From a virus (Duplodnaviria > Heunggongvirae > Uroviricota > Caudoviricetes), in the IMG/VR virus record IMGVR_UViG_648276668_000001, positions 1-6,407 of that record: DNA of 6,407 nt. The stretch is one strand, 5' to 3'. The notes beneath the pieces are model-generated. The model worked only from the letters and a program-made list of their open reading frames with translations, was not told the DNA's origin and did no database searches. This document shows, in pieces, positions 1 to 6,407 of the stretch (position 1 is its first letter; every line of letters begins with the position of its first letter). A program made the translations under genes and the position numbers.

Positions 1-2
1 TT

Positions 3-2108
3 GGCTGTACCAGCCGGGGGCAGGCACACCGCGCCGGGCTGTGGCTGATTAAAACGGAACTGCTGGAGACGCAGACCGTGGATTTCAGCGTGGGTGCTGA
101 AGGGCTTCGCCATGTACCGGGCGATGTCATTGAAATCTGCGATGATGACTATGCCGGTATCAGCACCGGTGGTCGCGTGCTGGCGGTGAACAGCCAGACC
201 CGGACGCTGACGCTCGACCGTGAAATCACGCTGCCATCCTCCGGCACCACGCTGATAAGCCTGGTTGACGGTGAGGGTAATCCGGTCAGCGTGGAGGTCC
301 AGTCCGTCACCGACGGCGTGAAGGTGAAAGTGAGCCGTGTTCCTGACGGCGTTGCTGAATACAGCGTGTGGGGGCTGAAGTTGCCGACGTTGCGCCAGCG
401 CCTGTTCCGCTGCGTGAGTATCCGTGAGAACGACGACGGCACGTATGCCATCACTGCCGTGCAGCATGTACCGGAGAAAGAGGCCATCGTGGATAACGGG
501 GCGCACTTTGACGGCGACCAGAGCGGCACGGTGAATGGTGTCACGCCGCCAGCGGTGCAGCACCTGACTGCCGAAGTCACCGCAGACAGCGGGGAATATC
601 AGGTACTGGCCCGCTGGGACACGCCGAAGGTGGTGAAGGGCGTGAGCTTCCTGCTTCGCCTGACCGTGGCAGCGGACGACGGCAGTGAGCGGCTGGTCAG
701 CACGGCCCGGACGACGGAAACCACATACCGCTTCACGCAACTGGCGCTGGGGCGTTACACGCTGACAGTCCGGGCGGTAAATGCGTGGGGGCAGCAGGGC
801 GATCCGGCATCGGTATCGTTCCGGATTGCGGCACCGGCAGCGCCTGTCACTATTGAACTGATACCAGGGTATTTTCAGATAACAGCGGTCCCGAAACTGG
901 CTGTATATGACCCGACGGTGCAGTTTGAGTTCTGGTTCTCGGAAAAGCGGATTACCGATATCAGGCAGGTTGAAACCAGCGCGCGTTATCTTGGTACGGC
1001 GCTGTACTGGATAGCCGCCAGTAGCAATATTAAGCCGGGTTATGATTATTACTTTTATATCCGCAGCGTGAACACTGTTGGTAAATCGGCATTTGTGGAG
1101 GCCGTCGGTCGGGCGAGCGATGATGCGGAAGGTTATCTGAATTTTTATAAAGGGTTGATCAATAAAACGCATCTCGGCAAGGAACTGCTGGAAAACTTTG
1201 AGCTGACGGAAGATAACGCCAGCAAACTGGAGGAGTTTTCGAAAGAGTGGAAGGACGCTAACGATAAATGGAATGCCATGTGGGGCGTCAAAATTGAGCA
1301 GACCAAAGACGGCAAACATTATGTCGCGGGTATTGGCCTCAGCATGGAGGATACGGAGGAAGGCAAACTGAGCCAGTTCCTGGTTGCCGCTAACCGTATC
1401 GCGTTTATTGACCCGGCAAACGGGAATGAAACGCCGATGTTTGTGGCGCAGGGCAACCAGATATTCATGAACGAAGTGTTCCTGAAGTATCTGACGGCTC
1501 CCACCATTACCAGCGGCGGTAATCCTCCGGCATTTTCCCTGACACCGGACGGGCGGCTGACGGCGAGAAATGCTGATATCAGCGGTAACGTGAATGCGAA
1601 CTCCGGGACGCTCAATAATGTCACGGTAAATGAAAACTGTACGATTAAGGGCATGCTGGAGGCGAACCAGGTCAGAGGTGACTTCGTTAAAACTGTATCC
1701 AAATCATTCCCGAAAAAGGCTGGTACGTGGGGTAACACGGAAACACCAAACGGGACGGTTACAGTCACCATTTACGATGATCATAACTTTGACCGCCAAA
1801 TCATTATTCCGCCCATTATTTTTAACGGTGTGGCGTATGACGATCCGGGGAGCGGTAATAACCCGGGAGGTACGCGATACACGGGTTATGGTTTTGAAGT
1901 TCGCAAAAATGGCGTATTAATCGCATCCAGAGAAACTAAAGGAGCCATTCCCGGTAGTTACAGTGCGGTTATTGATATGCCGAGTGGTGGTGGTAACGTC
2001 ACTCTGGAGTTTAAGATTTTCCAGAAAGGCAATCAGGGCGCAGGTAACATCACAGACTGTACGGTGATTGTGACCAAAAAAGCTGCTTCCGGTATCAGTA
2101 TCCGTTGA
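3..2108 (+). CDS. J: Host-specificity / tail-tip protein (lambda J-like), C-terminal ~700 codons; 5'-partial, gene continues upstream of the window
   Basis: The reading frame is open from position 3 with no stop until TGA at 2106-2108. The provided ORF (78..2108) starts at an internal GTG, but translation of bases 3-77 gives [26 protein letters not shown], continuous with it. From memory, the [51 protein letters not shown] stretch matches lambda J. Two fibronectin-III-like segments are present (e.g. ...[32 protein letters not shown]...), followed by a distal C-terminal domain that in J-type proteins carries receptor specificity. Confidence 0.9.
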
Positions 2109-2129
2109 AATATTTATAACCCCAATACG

Positions 2130-2155
2130 GGCGCCAGAAATGGCGCCTTTTTTAT
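2130..2155 (+). terminator. Rho-independent terminator between J and stf
   Basis: Perfect 7-bp GC-rich stem GGCGCCA (2130-2136) / TGGCGCC (2141-2147) with a GAAA tetraloop, immediately followed by TTTTTTATTT (2148-2157). It lies 22 nt after the J stop. Confidence 0.6.
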
Positions 2156-2168
2156 TTGTGGAGTGAGT

Positions 2169-4541
2169 ATGGCAGTACAGATTTCAGGTGTGCTGAAAGA
2201 TGGTGCGGGAAAACCAATACAGAACTGCACTATTCAACTGAAGGCAAAGCGTAACAGCACCACGGTACTGGTGAACACGGTGGCCTCTGAAAATCCGGAT
2301 GAAGCCGGGCGTTACAGCATGGATGTTGAGTATGGCCAGTACAGCGTTATCCTGCTGGTTGAAGGTTTTCCGCCTTCACATGCCGGAACCATTACCGTCT
2401 ATGAAGGTTCCAGACCAGGTACGCTGAATGATTTTCTCGGTGCCATGACGGAAGATGATGTCATGCCGGAGGCATTGCGTCGTTTTGAGGCAATGGTGGA
2501 AGAAGCGGCACGCAACGCTGAAGCCGCCTTTCAGAGCGCAGCGGCGGCAAAGAAATCCGAAGCTGCTGCGGCATCATCGAAGAACGCGGCGAAAAGCTCA
2601 GAAACGAATGCAGCTAACAGCGCACAGGCGGCAGCGGCCTCACAGACTGCATCGGCAAACTCCGCGACAGCAGCCCAAAAATCAGAAGCCAACGCGAAAA
2701 ATAGCGAAACAGCCGCAAAGACGAGTGAAACCAACGCGAAGTCCAGCCAGACGGCAGCGAAAACCAGCGAAACGAATGCCAAAGTCAGTGAAACTGCAGC
2801 GAAAAACAGCCAGGCTGCAGCAGCTGAAAGCGAGAGCGCAGCAGCCGGTTCTGCGACTTCAGCAGCTGGATCAGCAACTGCTGCGGCTAACAGCCAGAAA
2901 GCTGCGAAGGCGAGCGAAACTAACGCAAAGTCCAGCCAGACGGCAGCGAAGACCAGCGAAACGAATGCCAAAGCCAGCGAAACTGCGGCGAAAAGCAGTC
3001 AGGATGCAGCAGCCGAAAGCGAGAGTGCTGCAGCTGGTTCTGCAAGCGCGGCGGCTGCTTCTGCCACTGCATCAGCTAACAGTCAAAAAGCAGCAAAAAC
3101 CAGTGAAACCAACGCAAAGGTGAGCGAAACAGCGGCTGCGAACTCAGCGAAAGCATCGGCAGCAAGCCAGACGGCAGCTAAAGCAAGCGAAGATGCAGCC
3201 AGAGAGTACGCAAGCCAGGCTGCGGAGCCGTATAAATATGTCTTACAGCCGCTGCCTGATGTGTGGATACCATTTAACGATTCGCTGGATATGATTACGG
3301 GCTTTTCGCCGTCATATAAAAAGATTGTTATTGGTGATGATGAAATAACGATGCCTGGCGACAAGGTTGTTAAGTTTAAACGCGCATCGAAAGCAACCTA
3401 TATTAATAAATCTGGTGTGCTGACAGAGGCTGCCATTGACGAGCCACGGTTTGAACGTGATGGCCTGCTTATTGAGGGGCAAAGAACGAACTACATGCTC
3501 AATTCGGAAAGCCCTGCCAGTTGGGGGCGATCGTCAAATATGGATGTGCCCGAAACCGGGACGGATAGTTTTGGTTTTACCTATGGAAAGTTTGTCTGTA
3601 ACGATTCTCTGATTGGGCAAACCTCAGCCATTAATATGGCATCAATTGCTGCAACAAAGTCAGTTGATGTCTCAGGCGATAATAAACACGTGACAACCTC
3701 ATGTCGTTTTAAAACAGAACTGCAGGTAAGGTTGCGTATCCGGTTTGATAAATATGACGGTAGCGCAACAACTTTTCTTGGTGATGCGTATATTGATACA
3801 CAAACGCTTGAAATTAATATGACAGGCGGTGCTGCCTCAAGGATTACAGCGAGAGTCAGAAAGGACGAAGCTACCGGATGGATTTTTGCAGAGGCAACAA
3901 TTCAGGCAATTGATGGGGAGTTAAAAATAGGTTCTCAGATACAGTATTCTCCTAAGCAGGGCGGGGCAACCGTATCTGGTGACTATATTTATCTGGCCAC
4001 CCCACAAGTAGAAAATGGGCCTTGTGTATCATCTTTTATTATATCAGGAACGACGGCGGCGACCCGCGCAAGCGATATAGTTACAGTTCCAATTAAGAAT
4101 AATCTTTATAATCTTCCTTTTACGGTTCTTTGTGAGGTACATAAGAACTGGTATAAAACGCCAAATGCAGCGCCGCGTGTTTTTGACACCGGCGGTCATC
4201 AAACCGGAGCGGCTATTATTCTTGGCTTCGGTTCTTCAGCAGATTACGACGGATTTCCTTATTGCGATATTGGAGGAGCTAACAGACGGGTAAACGAAAA
4301 CGCATCGCTTGAAAAAATGGTTATGGGGATGCGTGTAAAGTCAGATCAGTCTACGTGCTCAGCAAGTAACGGGCGTATATCCAGCGAAACAAAAACCACA
4401 TGGTCCTGTATTCAGAACACCGCAATTATCCGTATTGGAGGCCAGACTACAGCCGGGTTACGTCATTTATTTGGTCATGTCAGGAATTTCAGAATATGGC
4501 ACAAGGCATTGACTGATGCTCAGGTGGGGGAGTCAATCTAA
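2169..4541 (+). CDS. stf: Side tail fibre protein (Stf-like), mosaic: lambda-Stf-like N-terminus, repetitive Ala-rich shaft, distal domain ending in a LamG/concanavalin-like motif
   Basis: The provided ORF starts at GTG 2163, but ATG 2169 is preferred: GGAG at 2160-2163 sits 5 nt upstream, and the product then begins MAVQISGVLKDGAGKPIQNCTIQLKAKRNSTTVLVNTVASENPDEAGRYSMDVEYGQYSVILLVEGFPPSHAGTITVYEGS, which I recognise from memory as the lambda Stf N-terminus. Residues ~120-350 are A/S/T/K/E/N-rich tandem repeats. The distal ~440 residues are different in character and lower in GC, ending ...IIRIGGQTTAGLRHLFGHVRNFRIWHKALTDAQV, which resembles the C-terminal strand motif of LamG_3 / concanavalin-like lectin domains. 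Stop TAA at 4539-4541. Confidence 0.85.
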   Translation: MAVQISGVLKDGAGKPIQNCTIQLKAKRNSTTVLVNTVASENPDEAGRYSMDVEYGQYSVILLVEGFPPSHAGTITVYEGSRPGTLNDFLGAMTEDDVMPEALRRFEAMVEEAARNAEAAFQSAAAAKKSEAAAASSKNAAKSSETNAANSAQAAAASQTASANSATAAQKSEANAKNSETAAKTSETNAKSSQTAAKTSETNAKVSETAAKNSQAAAAESESAAAGSATSAAGSATAAANSQKAAKASETNAKSSQTAAKTSETNAKASETAAKSSQDAAAESESAAAGSASAAAASATASANSQKAAKTSETNAKVSETAAANSAKASAASQTAAKASEDAAREYASQAAEPYKYVLQPLPDVWIPFNDSLDMITGFSPSYKKIVIGDDEITMPGDKVVKFKRASKATYINKSGVLTEAAIDEPRFERDGLLIEGQRTNYMLNSESPASWGRSSNMDVPETGTDSFGFTYGKFVCNDSLIGQTSAINMASIAATKSVDVSGDNKHVTTSCRFKTELQVRLRIRFDKYDGSATTFLGDAYIDTQTLEINMTGGAASRITARVRKDEATGWIFAEATIQAIDGELKIGSQIQYSPKQGGATVSGDYIYLATPQVENGPCVSSFIISGTTAATRASDIVTVPIKNNLYNLPFTVLCEVHKNWYKTPNAAPRVFDTGGHQTGAAIILGFGSSADYDGFPYCDIGGANRRVNENASLEKMVMGMRVKSDQSTCSASNGRISSETKTTWSCIQNTAIIRIGGQTTAGLRHLFGHVRNFRIWHKALTDAQVGESI
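2724..3135 (+). repeat. In-frame tandem repeat inside stf: two ~189-bp (63-aa) copies plus a partial third, each built from ~42-bp (14-aa) sub-repeats
   Basis: Direct comparison: 2733-2921 (aacgcgaagtccagccagacggcagcgaaaaccagcgaaacgaatgccaaagtcagtgaaactgcagcg...) recurs at 2922-3110 (aacgcaaagtccagccagacggcagcgaagaccagcgaaacgaatgccaaagccagcgaaactgcggcg...) with few substitutions. At protein level TNAKSSQTAAKTSETNAKVSETAAKNSQAAAAESESAAAGSA... is followed by TNAKSSQTAAKTSETNAKASETAAKSSQDAAAESESAAAGSA.... Boundaries are approximate. Confidence 0.8.
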
Positions 4542-4822
4542 TGAAAGATTTAACACTCAAATTTGAAGACAGGGCCGACTTTTCGGCCTTTATGGAGAGT
4601 ATTGGCTATTATGATGACGAGTCGATGCAGGATGATATTCTTATCGACGTGATAGGTAACGCGTACAAAGAAACCGGAGAACTGACTGAAGATGGCGAAC
4701 CGGTATGTGTTAAGGAAGACGGATATTTTGTAAACGTGCGCATCATTAATGATTCGCAAATATCGTCATTATTCGATGAGTACGTGGTTGCTGTTGAGCA
4801 TCAACTTCGTGGCTGGATGTGA
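4541..4822 (+). CDS. Hypothetical 93-aa highly acidic protein, translationally coupled to stf; function unknown (candidate fibre chaperone/adaptor or DNA-mimic-like anti-defence protein)
   Basis: The ATG at 4541-4543 overlaps the stf stop (TAATG). A GGGGGAG Shine-Dalgarno-like stretch (4526-4532) sits 8 nt upstream. The product has 22 Asp+Glu against 7 Lys+Arg by my count (net charge about -15). I recognise no family motif. Confidence 0.6.
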   Translation: MKDLTLKFEDRADFSAFMESIGYYDDESMQDDILIDVIGNAYKETGELTEDGEPVCVKEDGYFVNVRIINDSQISSLFDEYVVAVEHQLRGWM

Positions 4823-4831
4823 GGAAGAAAA

Positions 4832-5872
4832 ATGGCTACATCGACAGTAATTCCTGATGACATCAAAACGCTAAAATCCGACGTTAGCAAATTAAAAAAC
4901 GATCAAGGAAGCTACGCAACAAAATTATATGTAGACAGCAAAGATGAAATCGTTGGTGACTGGTCTGCTTCATGGTATCAGCAGGTATTGCCAACTAGCG
5001 GAGCTATATTTGGGAGAAAACTCCGCTCAACTCACAGGACGGCAGGTGTTGAGGATGCGTATTGCGAACTATACCTCAAAAAATGGATAGACAGTCCAGG
5101 TAACGCAATGGCGCGCCTTAACCTGAACGATAACGGGACAAACATTTGCTGGGACTTTACCAACCTTTATGGCGGTACGATGATTTTTCCCGGTGACAGC
5201 GGATACCTCAAAATGGGTAACTGCCTTATGTCATACAGCAAGCGTGGAAGTAACGCGCTTATTAAATTTGATTACACCGACACATTACAGATCAAATATG
5301 CCAATCATGGGTCAACCATGACATTAAACACACAGGGAACCGCTTATGCTGGTGTTACTGCTCAATTGTGGGGCAACTCCAGCCGTCCTGTTGTTTATGA
5401 AGTCGGTGTTGATGGTGGCGCTTATATGTTCTATGCGCAGAAAAATACCGATAACACCTATATGTTAAGCGTTAATGGTGCATGTCATGCCACAGCATTT
5501 AACCAGCATTCCGACCGGGATCTGAAAGACAACATTCAGGTGATCGATAATGCAACCGACCGCATCCGTAAAATGAACGGCTATACATACACGCTTAAAG
5601 AAAACGGTATGCCCTATGCTGGTGTCATTGCACAGGAAGCTCTGGAAGCAATCCCAGAAGTTGTAGGTTCCGCAATGAAATATCAGGACGGTGCAAGCGG
5701 ATCGGAAGGTGAAGAAGGTGAACGTTATTACACAGTAGATTATTCTGGTGTTACTGGCTTGCTTGTTCAGGTAGCCAGAGAGTCAGACGACAGAATAACA
5801 GCACTGGAAGAAGAAAATGCAGAATTAAAACAAAGATTATCTGCAATTGAGGCGACGCTTGCGTCTAAATAA
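4832..5872 (+). CDS. Short tail-fibre/tailspike-like protein with a C-terminal intramolecular chaperone (peptidase S74-type) autoproteolytic domain
   Basis: GAGGAAG lies 5 nt upstream of ATG 4832. The C-terminal ~120 residues, HSDRDLKDNIQVIDNATDRIRKMNGYTYTLKENGMPYAGVIAQEALEAIPEVV...YYTVDYSGVTGLLVQVARESDDRITALEEENAELKQRLSAIEATL, carry the hallmarks of the self-cleaving chaperone domain seen in endosialidase tailspikes and T5 L-shaped fibre: SD..LK.NI at the predicted cleavage site (Ser227, codon 5510-5512), GVIAQE...PEVV, and a terminal coiled-coil-like segment. The N-terminal ~226 residues would be the mature product. GC is low. Confidence 0.8.
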   Translation: MATSTVIPDDIKTLKSDVSKLKNDQGSYATKLYVDSKDEIVGDWSASWYQQVLPTSGAIFGRKLRSTHRTAGVEDAYCELYLKKWIDSPGNAMARLNLNDNGTNICWDFTNLYGGTMIFPGDSGYLKMGNCLMSYSKRGSNALIKFDYTDTLQIKYANHGSTMTLNTQGTAYAGVTAQLWGNSSRPVVYEVGVDGGAYMFYAQKNTDNTYMLSVNGACHATAFNQHSDRDLKDNIQVIDNATDRIRKMNGYTYTLKENGMPYAGVIAQEALEAIPEVVGSAMKYQDGASGSEGEEGERYYTVDYSGVTGLLVQVARESDDRITALEEENAELKQRLSAIEATLASK

Positions 5873-5878
5873 TATTAA

Positions 5879-5898
5879 GGGGCCGAGCGCCCCGTTTT
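5879..5898 (+). terminator. Probable intrinsic terminator after the S74-domain gene
   Basis: GGGGC (5879-5883) / GCCCC (5889-5893) stem with a 5-nt loop, followed by GTTTTATT. The stem is short, so this is a weak-to-moderate call. Confidence 0.45.
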
Positions 5899-5914
5899 AT
5901 TGGGTAGGATGAAA

Positions 5915-6208
5915 ATGGATATAACACCTTTCCTTCATGCACTTTGTGCTGTGGCTGCGCAGGTACTGGTTGGTCTTTTTACCGGAAACTGGGCTTACGG
6001 GGCGATAGCCGGTTGTACGTTCTTCATTGCTCGTGAACATACCCAGGCAGAATATCGCTGGATTGAAATGTTCGGGCATGGCAAGCGTATGAATATGCCG
6101 TGGTGGGGTGGTTTTGATCCGCGCGTGTGGGATGTGGCAAGCCTGATGGATTTTTCTGTGCCGGTGGTGGCGTGTCTGCTGGTCTGGCTGTTGGTTAATC
6201 GTGGGTGA
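5915..6208 (+). CDS. Small hypothetical integral membrane protein (~98 aa, three predicted transmembrane helices)
   Basis: The provided ORF (5900..6208) starts at TTG. ATG 5915 is preferred because AGGA at 5906-5909 sits 5 nt upstream; ATG 5909 is an alternative. Three hydrophobic segments: ITPFLHALCAVAAQVLVGLFTG, WAYGAIAGCTFFIA and VASLMDFSVPVVACLLVWLLV. No lipobox and no recognisable catalytic motif. Stop TGA at 6206-6208. Confidence 0.55.
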   Translation: MDITPFLHALCAVAAQVLVGLFTGNWAYGAIAGCTFFIAREHTQAEYRWIEMFGHGKRMNMPWWGGFDPRVWDVASLMDFSVPVVACLLVWLLVNRG

Positions 6209-6218
6209 AAAAAGGTGA

Positions 6219-6347
6219 GCTGTATATGCAACGGAGGAAGAAACCTCGCTGCTGGAAGCCTGGAAAAAGTATCGGGTGTTGCTGAACCGTGTTGATACAT
6301 CAACTGCACCTGATATTGAGTGGCCTACGAACCCTGTCAGGGAGTAA
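6219..6347 (+). pseudogene. tfa: Remnant of a tail-fibre assembly gene (tfa): conserved C-terminal ~40 codons only, no start codon
   Basis: The frame opens directly after an in-frame TGA (6216-6218) and reads [42 protein letters not shown], ending at TAA 6345-6347. From memory, [30 protein letters not shown] is the conserved C-terminal motif of lambda-type Tfa proteins. There is no ATG/GTG/TTG in frame and no N-terminal ~150 codons. It is absent from the ORF track because it is short and start-less. Confidence 0.7.
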
Positions 6348-6362
6348 TCATTGGGGATTATG

Positions 6363-6396
6363 CCGCAGAAACGTTGTATGCAATAACGTTCTGCGG
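6363..6396. repeat. Imperfect inverted repeat / hairpin (12 bp stem with one bulge, 9-nt loop) just downstream of the tfa remnant
   Basis: CCGCAGAAACGTT (6363-6375), loop GTATGCAAT, then AACGTTCTGCGG (6385-6396). No T-run follows on either strand, so it is not a classical intrinsic terminator. It may be a protein-binding site or part of an element continuing beyond the window. Confidence 0.4.
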
Positions 6397-6407
6397 TTGG
6401 CTGATGC

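Follow-up and report, generated by a model that had tools for sequence, protein, structure and literature searches.

In phage lambda the side tail fibre gene follows J and specifies a protein (Stf, orf-401/orf-314) with a PF08400 N-terminus, an Ala-rich shaft and a Tfa-dependent tip of the orf-314 type, and OmpC has been suggested as the target of these fibres (PMC11990801). For the Tequintavirus IrisVonRoten (Bas32), a two-part fibre has been modelled in which gp24 is attached to gp22, whose end is a galectin-like domain (PMC11990801); the gene order gp22-gp23-gp24 corresponds to a proximal fibre, a protein of ~92 aa and a distal fibre that bears an intramolecular chaperone (IMC). The branched side fibre of the T5-like phage DT57C, as described in the passages drawn on here (PMC4728585, PMC10713586), likewise has two proteins, with LtfB hung on LtfA, and those passages make no mention of a small intervening protein; they state that the lateral fibres are required for O-antigen-producing hosts and that the receptor of LtfB is the O81 O-antigen (PMC10713586). 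Finally, the head spike fibre Rcc01080 (GhsB) of the Rhodobacter gene transfer agent RcGTA binds capsule polysaccharide (PMC7296036, PMC10218006) and is a single-copy fibre at the capsid vertices, not the tip of a tail fibre.

The window analysed here, a stretch of 6,407 nt, comprises the tail-tip end of an E. coli prophage that is lambda-like (Tritos/phage 21-type) and in which the outer half of the side tail fibre and most of tfa are replaced by an unrelated, widely shared fibre module. This mosaic is genuine, yet it is ordinary phage mosaicism. An earlier note on this DNA had placed the open reading frames correctly (stf at 2169-4541, the others as listed), and the features are as follows:

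1..2108, + strand: 3' part of J, lambda-like until ~1664, with a different allele over the ~150 codons at the C-terminal end
2129..2157, + strand: terminator-like hairpin and T run between J and stf
2169..2561, + strand: N-terminal virion-attachment domain of Stf (PF08400, aa 1-131, E 1.6e-66)
2562..3224, + strand: Ala/Ser/Thr-rich shaft of Stf, about 58% identical in amino acids to that of lambda orf-401
3225..4541, + strand: Stf distal domain (aa 353-790), unlike lambda orf-314
3246..5808, + strand: unit common to phage lineages, made up of the distal domain of Stf, the 93-aa ORF and almost the whole S74 gene
4541..4822, + strand: 93-aa acidic protein (pI 4.05) whose start codon overlaps the stop of stf (TAATG)
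4832..5872, + strand: 346-aa protein, most likely a second (distal) fibre; putative docking peptide at the N-terminus, then a variable head, then an S74 intramolecular chaperone domain at the C-terminus
5879..5901, + strand: terminator-like hairpin (GGGGCCGAGCGCCCC and GTTTTATT) 3' of the S74 gene
5915..6208, + strand: 97-aa membrane protein with an invariant loop (AREHTQAEYRWI...MPWWGGFD); 52% GC
6219..6347, + strand: 3' remnant of tfa, 42 codons, startless, with an in-frame stop just upstream; lambda homology from 6227
6348..6398, + strand: lambda-like sequence past the tfa stop, with an inverted repeat at ~6363-6398

In the closest genome the tape-measure gene of the prophage is frameshifted, and this particular copy may therefore never enter particles.

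A lambda-type fibre base with a GTA-type head

Similarity to lambda DNA is confined to 1-1664 (J), 2152-2518 and 6227-6398. The second of these segments is the 5' end of stf (83.7% nucleotide identity, the only lambda-like stf DNA) and the third comprises the last ~40 codons of tfa plus 51 nt downstream (90.7%), so that the flanks are of lambda type, as had been proposed from inspection. The proposal that the interior is foreign to lambda holds as well: the Stf distal domain, the 93-aa ORF, the S74 fibre gene and the membrane ORF show no lambda DNA match. At the protein level Stf residues 1-343 are 58% identical to lambda orf-401, whereas BLASTP of residues 344-790 against orf-314 gave no match, and the tfa remnant is 90% identical to lambda Tfa residues 156-194, the last 39 of that protein. 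Compared with lambda, the window thus lacks an orf-314-type Tfa-dependent tip, retains only 42 startless codons of tfa, and carries two additions, a gene for a second fibre and one for a small acidic partner. It also has no lom between J and stf; a terminator is annotated at the equivalent J/stf site in the phage 21 record.

Within the shaft lies a 189-bp repeat (2.2 copies, 2703-3119), and the EPYKYV peptide from which the earlier note dated the change begins at nt 3225. Similarity to other phage lineages sets in at 3204-3248, as seen independently in tunus, ESCO3, VogelGryff and phage 21, which confirms that breakpoint. Beyond it, Stf aa 434-634 (nt 3468-4070) belong to the GTA head-spike-fibre type (NF048003, GTA_spike_fiber), with an NCBIfam score of 51 bits against a curated cut-off of 36, and the head matches the PDB sequence of RcGTA Rcc01080 with an E-value of 4.5e-7. 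The distal domain ends in a conserved C-terminal motif (IRIGGQ...RHLFGHxRNxRIWH). The AlphaFold model of the head has a pLDDT of 40, and Rcc01080 supplies no fold for it because the fibre is resolved at residues 2-10 only in the GTA cryo-EM entry. The Stf head is putatively lectin-like. A receptor unlike that of lambda Stf, as had been predicted, and independence from Tfa are both reasonable to expect, since the tip has been replaced by a domain of a different kind.

IrisVonRoten shares more than the head with the window. Its gene order is the same, and identity is 52% between Stf residues 130-790 and gp22 and 39% between the 93-aa protein and gp23. By contrast, the distal fibres (346 aa in the window versus 574 aa in IrisVonRoten) have only the N-terminal peptide M(A/V)T.TVIP.DI..LK and the type of chaperone domain in common, their heads being unrelated by BLAST. 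Further differences from IrisVonRoten are that the window is part of a temperate lambdoid prophage whose fibre attachment domain is of the lambda type (PF08400), and that it carries a membrane ORF and a tfa scar, both of which T5-like phages lack. Phage 21, ev207 and Perceval carry an Stf head of the same family, with 82% nucleotide identity over 3220-4180, and likewise share the family of the small acidic ORF, the membrane ORF (95%) and an identical tfa junction; they differ in lacking the S74 second-fibre gene with its terminator-bearing sequence and in a shorter tfa remnant, cut at ~6284 by the sitABCD operon.

Two genes linked to the Stf head

The 93-aa ORF is the constant partner of the GTA-type fibre head. 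It occurs in 181 phage records compared to 219 for the head domain, with a nearly identical taxon breakdown, and it lies directly 3' of the fibre gene in all inspected loci (lambdoid, Drexlerviridae, Queuovirinae, T5-like and rV5-like). The AlphaFold model of the protein has a pLDDT of 43, and its sequence showed no clear co-variation with any Stf sub-domain or with the N-terminus of the second fibre. Its most likely role is that of a dedicated chaperone or cap in assembly, a counterpart of what Tfa is for lambda Stf, and it is the sole candidate for a Tfa replacement.

The 346-aa protein carries a Peptidase_S74 domain (PF13884) at aa 227-278 (nt 5510-5665, E 4.7e-14), with a Ser/Lys dyad of the S-x4-K type (SDRDLK, 227-232; Ser227/Lys232, Ser codon at 5510), and there is a sequence match to the C-terminal region of the distal subunit of the S16 long tail fibre (6f45, E 8e-4). 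The S74 domain serves as chaperone for the protein that carries it and, to our knowledge, all characterised S74 domains (endosialidase, T5 pb1) act on their own chain. We considered that the 346-aa protein could instead be a chaperone that acts in trans on the Stf head without becoming part of the virion, as the database annotations "putative lateral tail fiber chaperone" and "endosialidase chaperone" would have it. It is annotated as a chaperone in VogelGryff and ESCO3, and its co-transfer with the Stf head could also indicate this role. Several observations besides the own-chain action of known S74 domains make this unlikely. First, residues 92-343 match the tips of tail fibres of 1,210 and 1,567 aa, and the part of this match before the cleavage serine (residues 92-226) corresponds to the distal ends of these long fibres. 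Second, the N-terminal ~20 aa are kept across four head types in four phage groups, an arrangement of allelic heads behind a conserved peptide like that of receptor-binding proteins. Third, phage 21, ev207 and Perceval have homologous Stf heads without any S74 gene. Fourth, the IrisVonRoten homologue has been modelled as a distal fibre (PMC11990801). The 346-aa protein is thus most likely a second fibre rather than a folding factor for Stf.

The right flank and base composition

The membrane ORF belongs to the conserved lambdoid right flank and not to the fibre module. It is 94-95% conserved among relatives whose fibre parts vary, it stands alone 3' of the tailspike gene in the P22-like phage Gally, and in Aeromonas it is a stand-alone chromosomal gene. 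The family of its product extends to 75 phage records and 570 database protein clusters, seen only in temperate phages and some chromosomes, and in lambdoid, P22-like and Comamonas prophages the gene sits at the end of the late operon. Its start codon lies ~14 nt past the terminator-like hairpin at 5879-5901, a hairpin held in intervening sequence that the S74-less variants lack; no promoter signal above chance was found for the ORF, and the lists of genes that lysogens of Tritos, Perceval or Gally express in LF82 do not include it. It is probably a late-transcribed accessory gene.

Next to it, the tfa remnant covers positions 95-130 of the 131-position Caudo_TAP profile and is called incomplete by PGAP. 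At 6226/6227, where the membrane ORF part meets tfa, Tritos, 2G7b, ev207, PhiR49_1, Perceval and phage 21 match the window base for base, and because this junction recurs in six other lambdoid phages it reflects one old event and not a site of recent exchange. The role of homology arm that the tfa 3' end had been given is therefore not supported.

Base composition points the same way for the membrane ORF. The GC values counted on 60-nt samples in the earlier note were exact (0.55 in J at 121-180, 0.367 and 0.383 in the presumed cassette), but the region means are not 37-38%: mean GC is 44.6% in the Stf distal part, 42% in the 93-aa ORF and 44% in the S74 ORF. The membrane ORF, at 52%, equals the flanks, and thus only three of the four parts, not all four as had been thought, are lower in GC. 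Moreover, J is a poor comparator at 121-180 because its own GC falls from 57% to 46.6% at ~1665, and the high GC of the shaft (57%; GC2 68.5%) is mostly due to its Ala/Ser/Thr codons. Third-position GC steps down at 3225 only from about 48% to 39%.

The unit of exchange

On the alignments, the moving module consists of three genes (3246-5808) that pass between temperate and virulent coliphages by recombination. The virulent Nonagvirus vB_EcoS_ESCO3 matches the window in one HSP of 2,564 nt with 95.0% nucleotide identity over this interval. We weighed this against the view of the earlier note that a single four-gene cassette entered in one exchange whose homology arms were the stf shaft and the 3' end of tfa, with the three downstream genes all acting as folding factors. 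Its flanks are indeed lambda-like and its interior is not; experiments have demonstrated homologous recombination of lambda with defective prophages in stf and tfa (PMC3945230), and the isolated phages Tritos, HannyBb, PhiR63_1 and 2G7b have the full arrangement of four genes together. Nonetheless we regard such a cassette as quite unlikely. Relatives show breakpoints inside it (3357, 3493, 4180, 4426, 4875 and 5906), ESCO3 shares 3246-5808 only, and phage 21, ev207 and Perceval keep the rest without the S74 gene. The membrane ORF has flank-like GC and travels alone, as its occurrence in Gally and on Aeromonas chromosomes illustrates, and the incoming DNA had no tfa homology at the shared 6226/6227 junction. 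Nor is an exchange of the tip together with a set of folding factors supported, given that the S74 protein resembles a second fibre and that the membrane ORF is self-standing in Aeromonas, leaving the 93-aa ORF as the one plausible fibre partner.

That the module was acquired or is switched by a Pin/Gin-type invertase acting at a fibre-gene crossover, as in Mu, P1 and e14, is highly unlikely. The exchange of fibre modules by invertases has been proposed in work that PMC3945230 cites, and pinR lies just 3' of the tfa remnant, but in Tritos only and outside the window. The window itself contains no invertase gene and no gix-like core above chance, with none at either junction, and we found neither long inverted repeats nor inverted alternative fibre ends.

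The arrangement, which had been taken for an undescribed one, is in fact common. Among 5,426 complete E. coli genomes, 398 contain 80% or more of 3225-6233; the arrangement is also found in several isolated phages and is homologous to IrisVonRoten gp22-gp24. That the locus is decaying prophage debris without current function, its ORFs preserved by chance or recency, is very unlikely: although the tfa remnant is a pseudogene and the tape-measure gene of the closest genome is frameshifted, the four ORFs are intact here and in hundreds of genomes at 80-99% identity, and phages of five lineages that form plaques have the same genes. Lambda can do without its side fibres when plated in the laboratory. 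For this reason the plaques that Tritos, which has the arrangement without an intact tfa, forms on K-12 do not prove that the fibre assembles.

We therefore favour, as the probable reading, a lambda-type attachment domain and shaft joined to a GTA/gp22-type head, with a co-transferred 93-aa partner and an S74 second fibre, next to an older right flank. Stf keeps its attachment domain and Ala-rich shaft and changes, from about nt 3225-3246, to a head homologous both to the capsule-binding GTA head-spike fibre and to the proximal lateral-fibre protein gp22 of IrisVonRoten. Two co-transferred genes follow, that of the 93-aa acidic protein, translationally coupled to stf, and that of the probable 346-aa distal fibre. 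The 93-aa protein most likely acts as chaperone or cap, doing the job of Tfa for the new head, and the conserved N-terminal peptide of the 346-aa protein is predicted to dock the second fibre onto the Stf complex. The variable head of this protein (~200 aa) could bind a surface glycan, while its S74 domain would fold the trimer and then self-cleave at Ser227. The particle would thus carry a two-part, probably branched, glycan-binding side fibre independent of Tfa, and the membrane ORF and the 42-codon tfa scar are a separate, older right flank common to this lambdoid group.

More tentatively, it is possible, if not the outcome we expect, that three things hold jointly: that the acidic proteins of ~90 aa, invariably coupled in translation to GTA-type heads, are an uncharacterised class of fibre chaperones or transient caps replacing Tfa, that the membrane protein is a late factor acting on a conserved envelope target (for instance by blocking progeny or superinfecting phage from the lysing cell), and that the fibre system moves freely across the divide between temperate and virulent phages, as in the 95%, 2.6-kb exchange between Nonagvirus and lambdoid phages.

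As a discovery the locus represents routine tail-fibre mosaicism, of which many annotated genomes already provide examples; the two small genes, for the 93-aa partner and the membrane protein, are cheap experimental targets. For host-range prediction and phage engineering, the true unit of exchange is the three-gene block 3246-5808, whose left joint is defined and falls where the Ala-rich shaft ends, and prophages with this block should be scored as probably glycan-targeting, not as OmpC-targeting.

Organization of the window and its lambda-type flanks

Annotation of the window yielded the following features, and Rfam and tRNA scans of it gave no matches.

to 2108, + strand: J, 3' two-thirds
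2129-2148, + strand: terminator-like hairpin between J and stf
2169-4541, + strand: stf, 790 aa
4541-4822, + strand: 93-aa ORF, its ATG overlapping the stop of stf (TAATG)
4832-5872, + strand: 346-aa ORF (S74 gene)
5879-5893 plus GTTTTATT, + strand: second terminator-like hairpin
5915-6208, + strand: 97-aa hydrophobic ORF (membrane ORF)
6219-6347, + strand: tfa 3' fragment of 42 codons, lacking a start codon and immediately preceded by a stop

A prophage of E. coli T-HYM1 is 99.6% identical to the window and carries the same genes in its NCBI annotation, where the tfa piece is listed as 'incomplete, missing N-terminus' and where sitDCBA, uspF and ompN lie downstream of the equivalent region. 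Because the tape-measure gene of this near-identical prophage (locus L001, 1-2312) is annotated as frameshifted, the T-HYM1 copy may be defective.

Nucleotide similarity to lambda is confined to three stretches: 1-1664 in J (91.6% identity), 2152-2518 at the 5' end of stf (83.7%) and 6227-6398, comprising the last 39 tfa codons and 51 nt past the stop (90.7%). Among the proteins, Stf 1-343 and lambda orf-401 share 58% identity, and comparison of Stf 344-790 with lambda orf-314 gave no match. Since similarity is restricted in this way, the earlier note was right to describe lambda-type flanks around a non-lambda interior. Its left boundary, placed at the peptide EPYKYV, was likewise confirmed: EPYKYV begins at nt 3225, and the matches of unrelated lineages begin at 3204 (tunus), 3246 (ESCO3, VogelGryff) and 3220 (phage 21). 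The accompanying claim of a low-GC interior needs amendment, as the three 60-nt spot counts behind it are exact but the region means are higher, at 44.6% for the distal Stf domain (Stf head, aa 353-790), 42% for the 93-aa ORF and 44% for the S74 ORF, with the membrane ORF at 52%. The 57% GC of the Stf shaft is largely a second-position effect (68.5%) of its Ala/Ser/Thr codons, and third-position GC drops from about 48% to 39% at 3225.

The last ~150 codons of J (1665-2108) are also a non-lambda allele, common to the lambdoid relatives Tritos, ev207, PhiR49_1, Perceval and PhiR11_1; matching to lambda and 2G7b ends at 1664 and 1711, respectively, and GC is 57% before about 1665 and 47% after it. 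This allele and the GC drop argue that the receptor-binding end of the central fibre has been swapped as well, and the swapped end may have a target other than LamB. The lom gene is missing at 2109-2168, where J is followed by the terminator-like hairpin and stf, as in Tritos, ev207 and phage 21; it is present between J and stf in lambda, 2G7b, Perceval and PhiR49_1.

Recombination joints and the mobile unit

The earlier note had read 3225-6233 as one four-gene cassette, exchanged with the stf shaft and the tfa 3' end as homology arms. This reading is contradicted by lambdoid relatives in which joints fall inside the block: ev207 matches the window at 1-4180 and then at 5906-6284, PhiR49_1 at 1-3493, 4426-4875 and 5914-6403, PhiR11_1 at 1-3357 and 4811-6193, and Perceval at 3248-4180 and 5906-6284. 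Stf, the small ORF and the membrane ORF are present in phage 21, ev207 and Perceval, which lack the S74 gene and the sequence holding the second terminator. The clearest case against a four-gene cassette is the virulent Nonagvirus vB_EcoS_ESCO3, as it shares only 3246-5808 (L015 4501-7063) in a single alignment of 2,564 nt, with no match to the right of 5808. The shared stretch comprises the Stf head, the 93-aa ORF and the S74 gene minus its last ~21 codons, and it is this stretch, 3246-5808, that forms the mobile unit. Read against a 2014 survey in which no recent mosaics of temperate and virulent coliphages were reported (PMC3945230), the 95.0% identity over these 2.56 kb looks like a fairly recent exchange between ESCO3 and lambdoid prophages across the temperate/virulent divide. 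Recombination of lambda with defective prophages in stf and tfa has been measured as well (PMC3945230).

Two other explanations were considered. Invertase-mediated exchange was rejected on finding neither crossover sites (no gix-like site above chance) nor long inverted repeats. Simple prophage decay is contradicted by ORFs that remain intact in plaque-forming phages and throughout hundreds of genomes. Of 5,426 complete E. coli genomes, 215 contain at least 80% of the whole window and 398 at least 80% of 3225-6233 (1,916 contain some part of 3225-6233). The full arrangement occurs in Tritos, HannyBb, PhiR63_1 and 2G7b at 96-97% identity. In the literature on lambdoid side tail fibres and the PhiR phages we found no specific description of the lambdoid module or of the tfa scar, and the paper on the LF82 prophages does not discuss fibres.

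The membrane ORF and the tfa remnant

Both ends of the membrane protein are hydrophobic, and its central loop, AREHTQAEYRWI..G.R.NMPWWGGFD, is almost invariant from Escherichia to Aeromonas and Comamonas (alignment A4). Its ORF is 94-95% identical among lambdoid variants that differ in their fibre parts, and it stands alone after the tailspike gene in the P22-like Gally (which matches the window only at 5914-6157). A J-like gene precedes it in a Comamonas prophage, and in Aeromonas rivipollensis it lies on the chromosome as a gene by itself. It is present in temperate phage genomes and was not found in the inspected virulent phage loci with the fibre module. The membrane ORF thus behaves separately from that module. 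In lambdoid phages, Gally and the Comamonas prophage it lies at the end of the late operon. For both this protein and the 93-aa protein, sequence searches of the PDB gave chance-level matches only, searches of Pfam, NCBIfam and PADLOC gave none, and the families of these two in PHROGs, which covers all four proteins, are of unknown function. The membrane ORF is probably expressed late, by read-through, because it starts ~14 nt past the terminator-like hairpin with no promoter signal above chance there, and is not among the reported lysogen-expressed genes of the three LF82 prophages that carry it.

The joint between the 3' flank of the membrane ORF and tfa (6226/6227) is base-identical in six other phages (Tritos, 2G7b, ev207, PhiR49_1, Perceval and phage 21), which further contradicts the single cassette: the joint goes back to a single ancient event in the ancestry of the whole group and is not a recent exchange in the window. 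As the incoming sequence lacks tfa homology at this joint, the original event was not a homologous crossover in tfa, so that the tfa 3' end does not qualify as a homology arm. In T-HYM1, sitDCBA (an iron/manganese transporter operon; L001 12560-16009) lies immediately 3' of the tfa remnant. Phage 21, ev207 and Perceval carry the sit operon within the phage genome, with junctions that differ from that of T-HYM1 and a tfa remnant shortened to about window 6284. In 2G7b (L004 10058-11081) and PhiR49_1 (L006 11737-12884), the remnant is followed by an opposite-strand ybcY-type methyltransferase gene and further small tfa fragments, after which 2G7b has ompT; we take this right end to resemble that of the K-12 prophage DLP12.

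The Stf head, the 93-aa protein and a probable second fibre

Stf begins with the PF08400 attachment domain (aa 1-131) and continues into a shaft with a 189-bp repeat (2.2 copies, 81% matches, window 2703-3119). Homologues in the databases vary in length (about 685, 727 and 790 aa), and gain or loss of these repeats may account for the differences. The head matches Rcc01080, the head-spike fibre of the Rhodobacter gene transfer agent (E 4.5e-7), and aa 434-634 pass the NCBI GTA_spike_fiber domain model. Rcc01080 binds capsule polysaccharide (PMC7296036, PMC10218006), and its part homologous to the Stf head has no solved structure. The head family (2,522 database clusters; 219 phage records) is fused to several N-terminal modules in lambdoid, Drexlerviridae, Dhillonvirus, Queuovirinae, T5-like and rV5-like phages. 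Some of the records with this E. coli-type head and the small ORF bear the label Campylobacter phage (C2, C12-C15) or Listeria phage (LM 4-11-1). They have the sizes and matches that typify rV5-like or T5-like coliphages, so the labels probably reflect host mis-assignment or contamination.

With a pI of 4.05 the 93-aa protein is acidic, and its ORF lies directly 3' of the fibre gene in all loci inspected. The protein occurs in 181 phage records, spread over taxa almost exactly as the Stf head is. An all-against-all profile search showed its family to be very narrow, with only 58 representatives, many of them fragments, out of 1.84 billion, and gave no informative distant relatives. AlphaFold2 models of the Stf head (mean pLDDT 40) and the 93-aa protein (pLDDT 43) were unusable, as the alignments behind them are too shallow (42 sequences, 78-96% identical, and 21 sequences, 83-94% identical, respectively). 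Co-variation of the 93-aa protein gave no clear signal with Stf sub-domains (Spearman 0.20-0.72 by segment) or with the N-terminus of the 346-aa protein (rho 0.35, p 0.12), the pairs being few and non-independent.

The 346-aa protein carries a Peptidase_S74 domain (E 4.7e-14) with the Ser227/Lys232 motif. Although its counterparts in VogelGryff and ESCO3 are annotated as trans chaperones, this role is disfavoured by a body that, upstream of the cleavage serine, resembles the tips of 1,210- and 1,567-aa fibres, by the existence of allelic heads, and by Stf heads that are also found without an S74 protein. Its N-terminal peptide, M(A/V)T.TVIP.DI..LK, is kept across different head types and phage groups. 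The nearest system described so far is that of the Tequintavirus IrisVonRoten (Bas32), in which the same three genes occur as gp22 (796 aa), gp23 (92 aa) and gp24 (574 aa), with 52% identity between Stf 130-790 and gp22 and 39% between the 93-aa protein and gp23. The published model makes gp24 the distal fibre, ending in a T5-like tip and bearing an intramolecular chaperone, and joins it to gp22 as the proximal fibre; the galectin-like domain at the C-terminus of gp22 may be an extra receptor-binding domain (second BASEL paper, PMC11990801). LtfA and LtfB of DT57C (PMC4728585, PMC10713586) offer the genetic precedent for hanging one fibre protein on another. General knowledge of lateral fibres is in keeping with this picture: conservation of their loci is limited to the far 5' end, and lateral fibres, made of one or several proteins, mostly target O-antigen (PMC8594841).

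Tritos has the same arrangement, lacks an intact tfa and plaques on K-12. This is compatible with Tfa independence and no proof of it, since lambda side fibres are dispensable in the laboratory.

By the working that we propose for the module, in which the 346-aa protein is a second fibre, Stf trimers would be anchored by the lambda-type N-terminus and bind surface glycan through lectin-like heads at the opposite end, with the 93-aa protein aiding head folding or capping the heads in place of Tfa. In the 346-aa protein, the S74 domain would assist trimerization and be removed by self-cleavage at Ser227; the protein would then dock by its N-terminal peptide, and the fibre may thereby gain a second glycan-binding tip.
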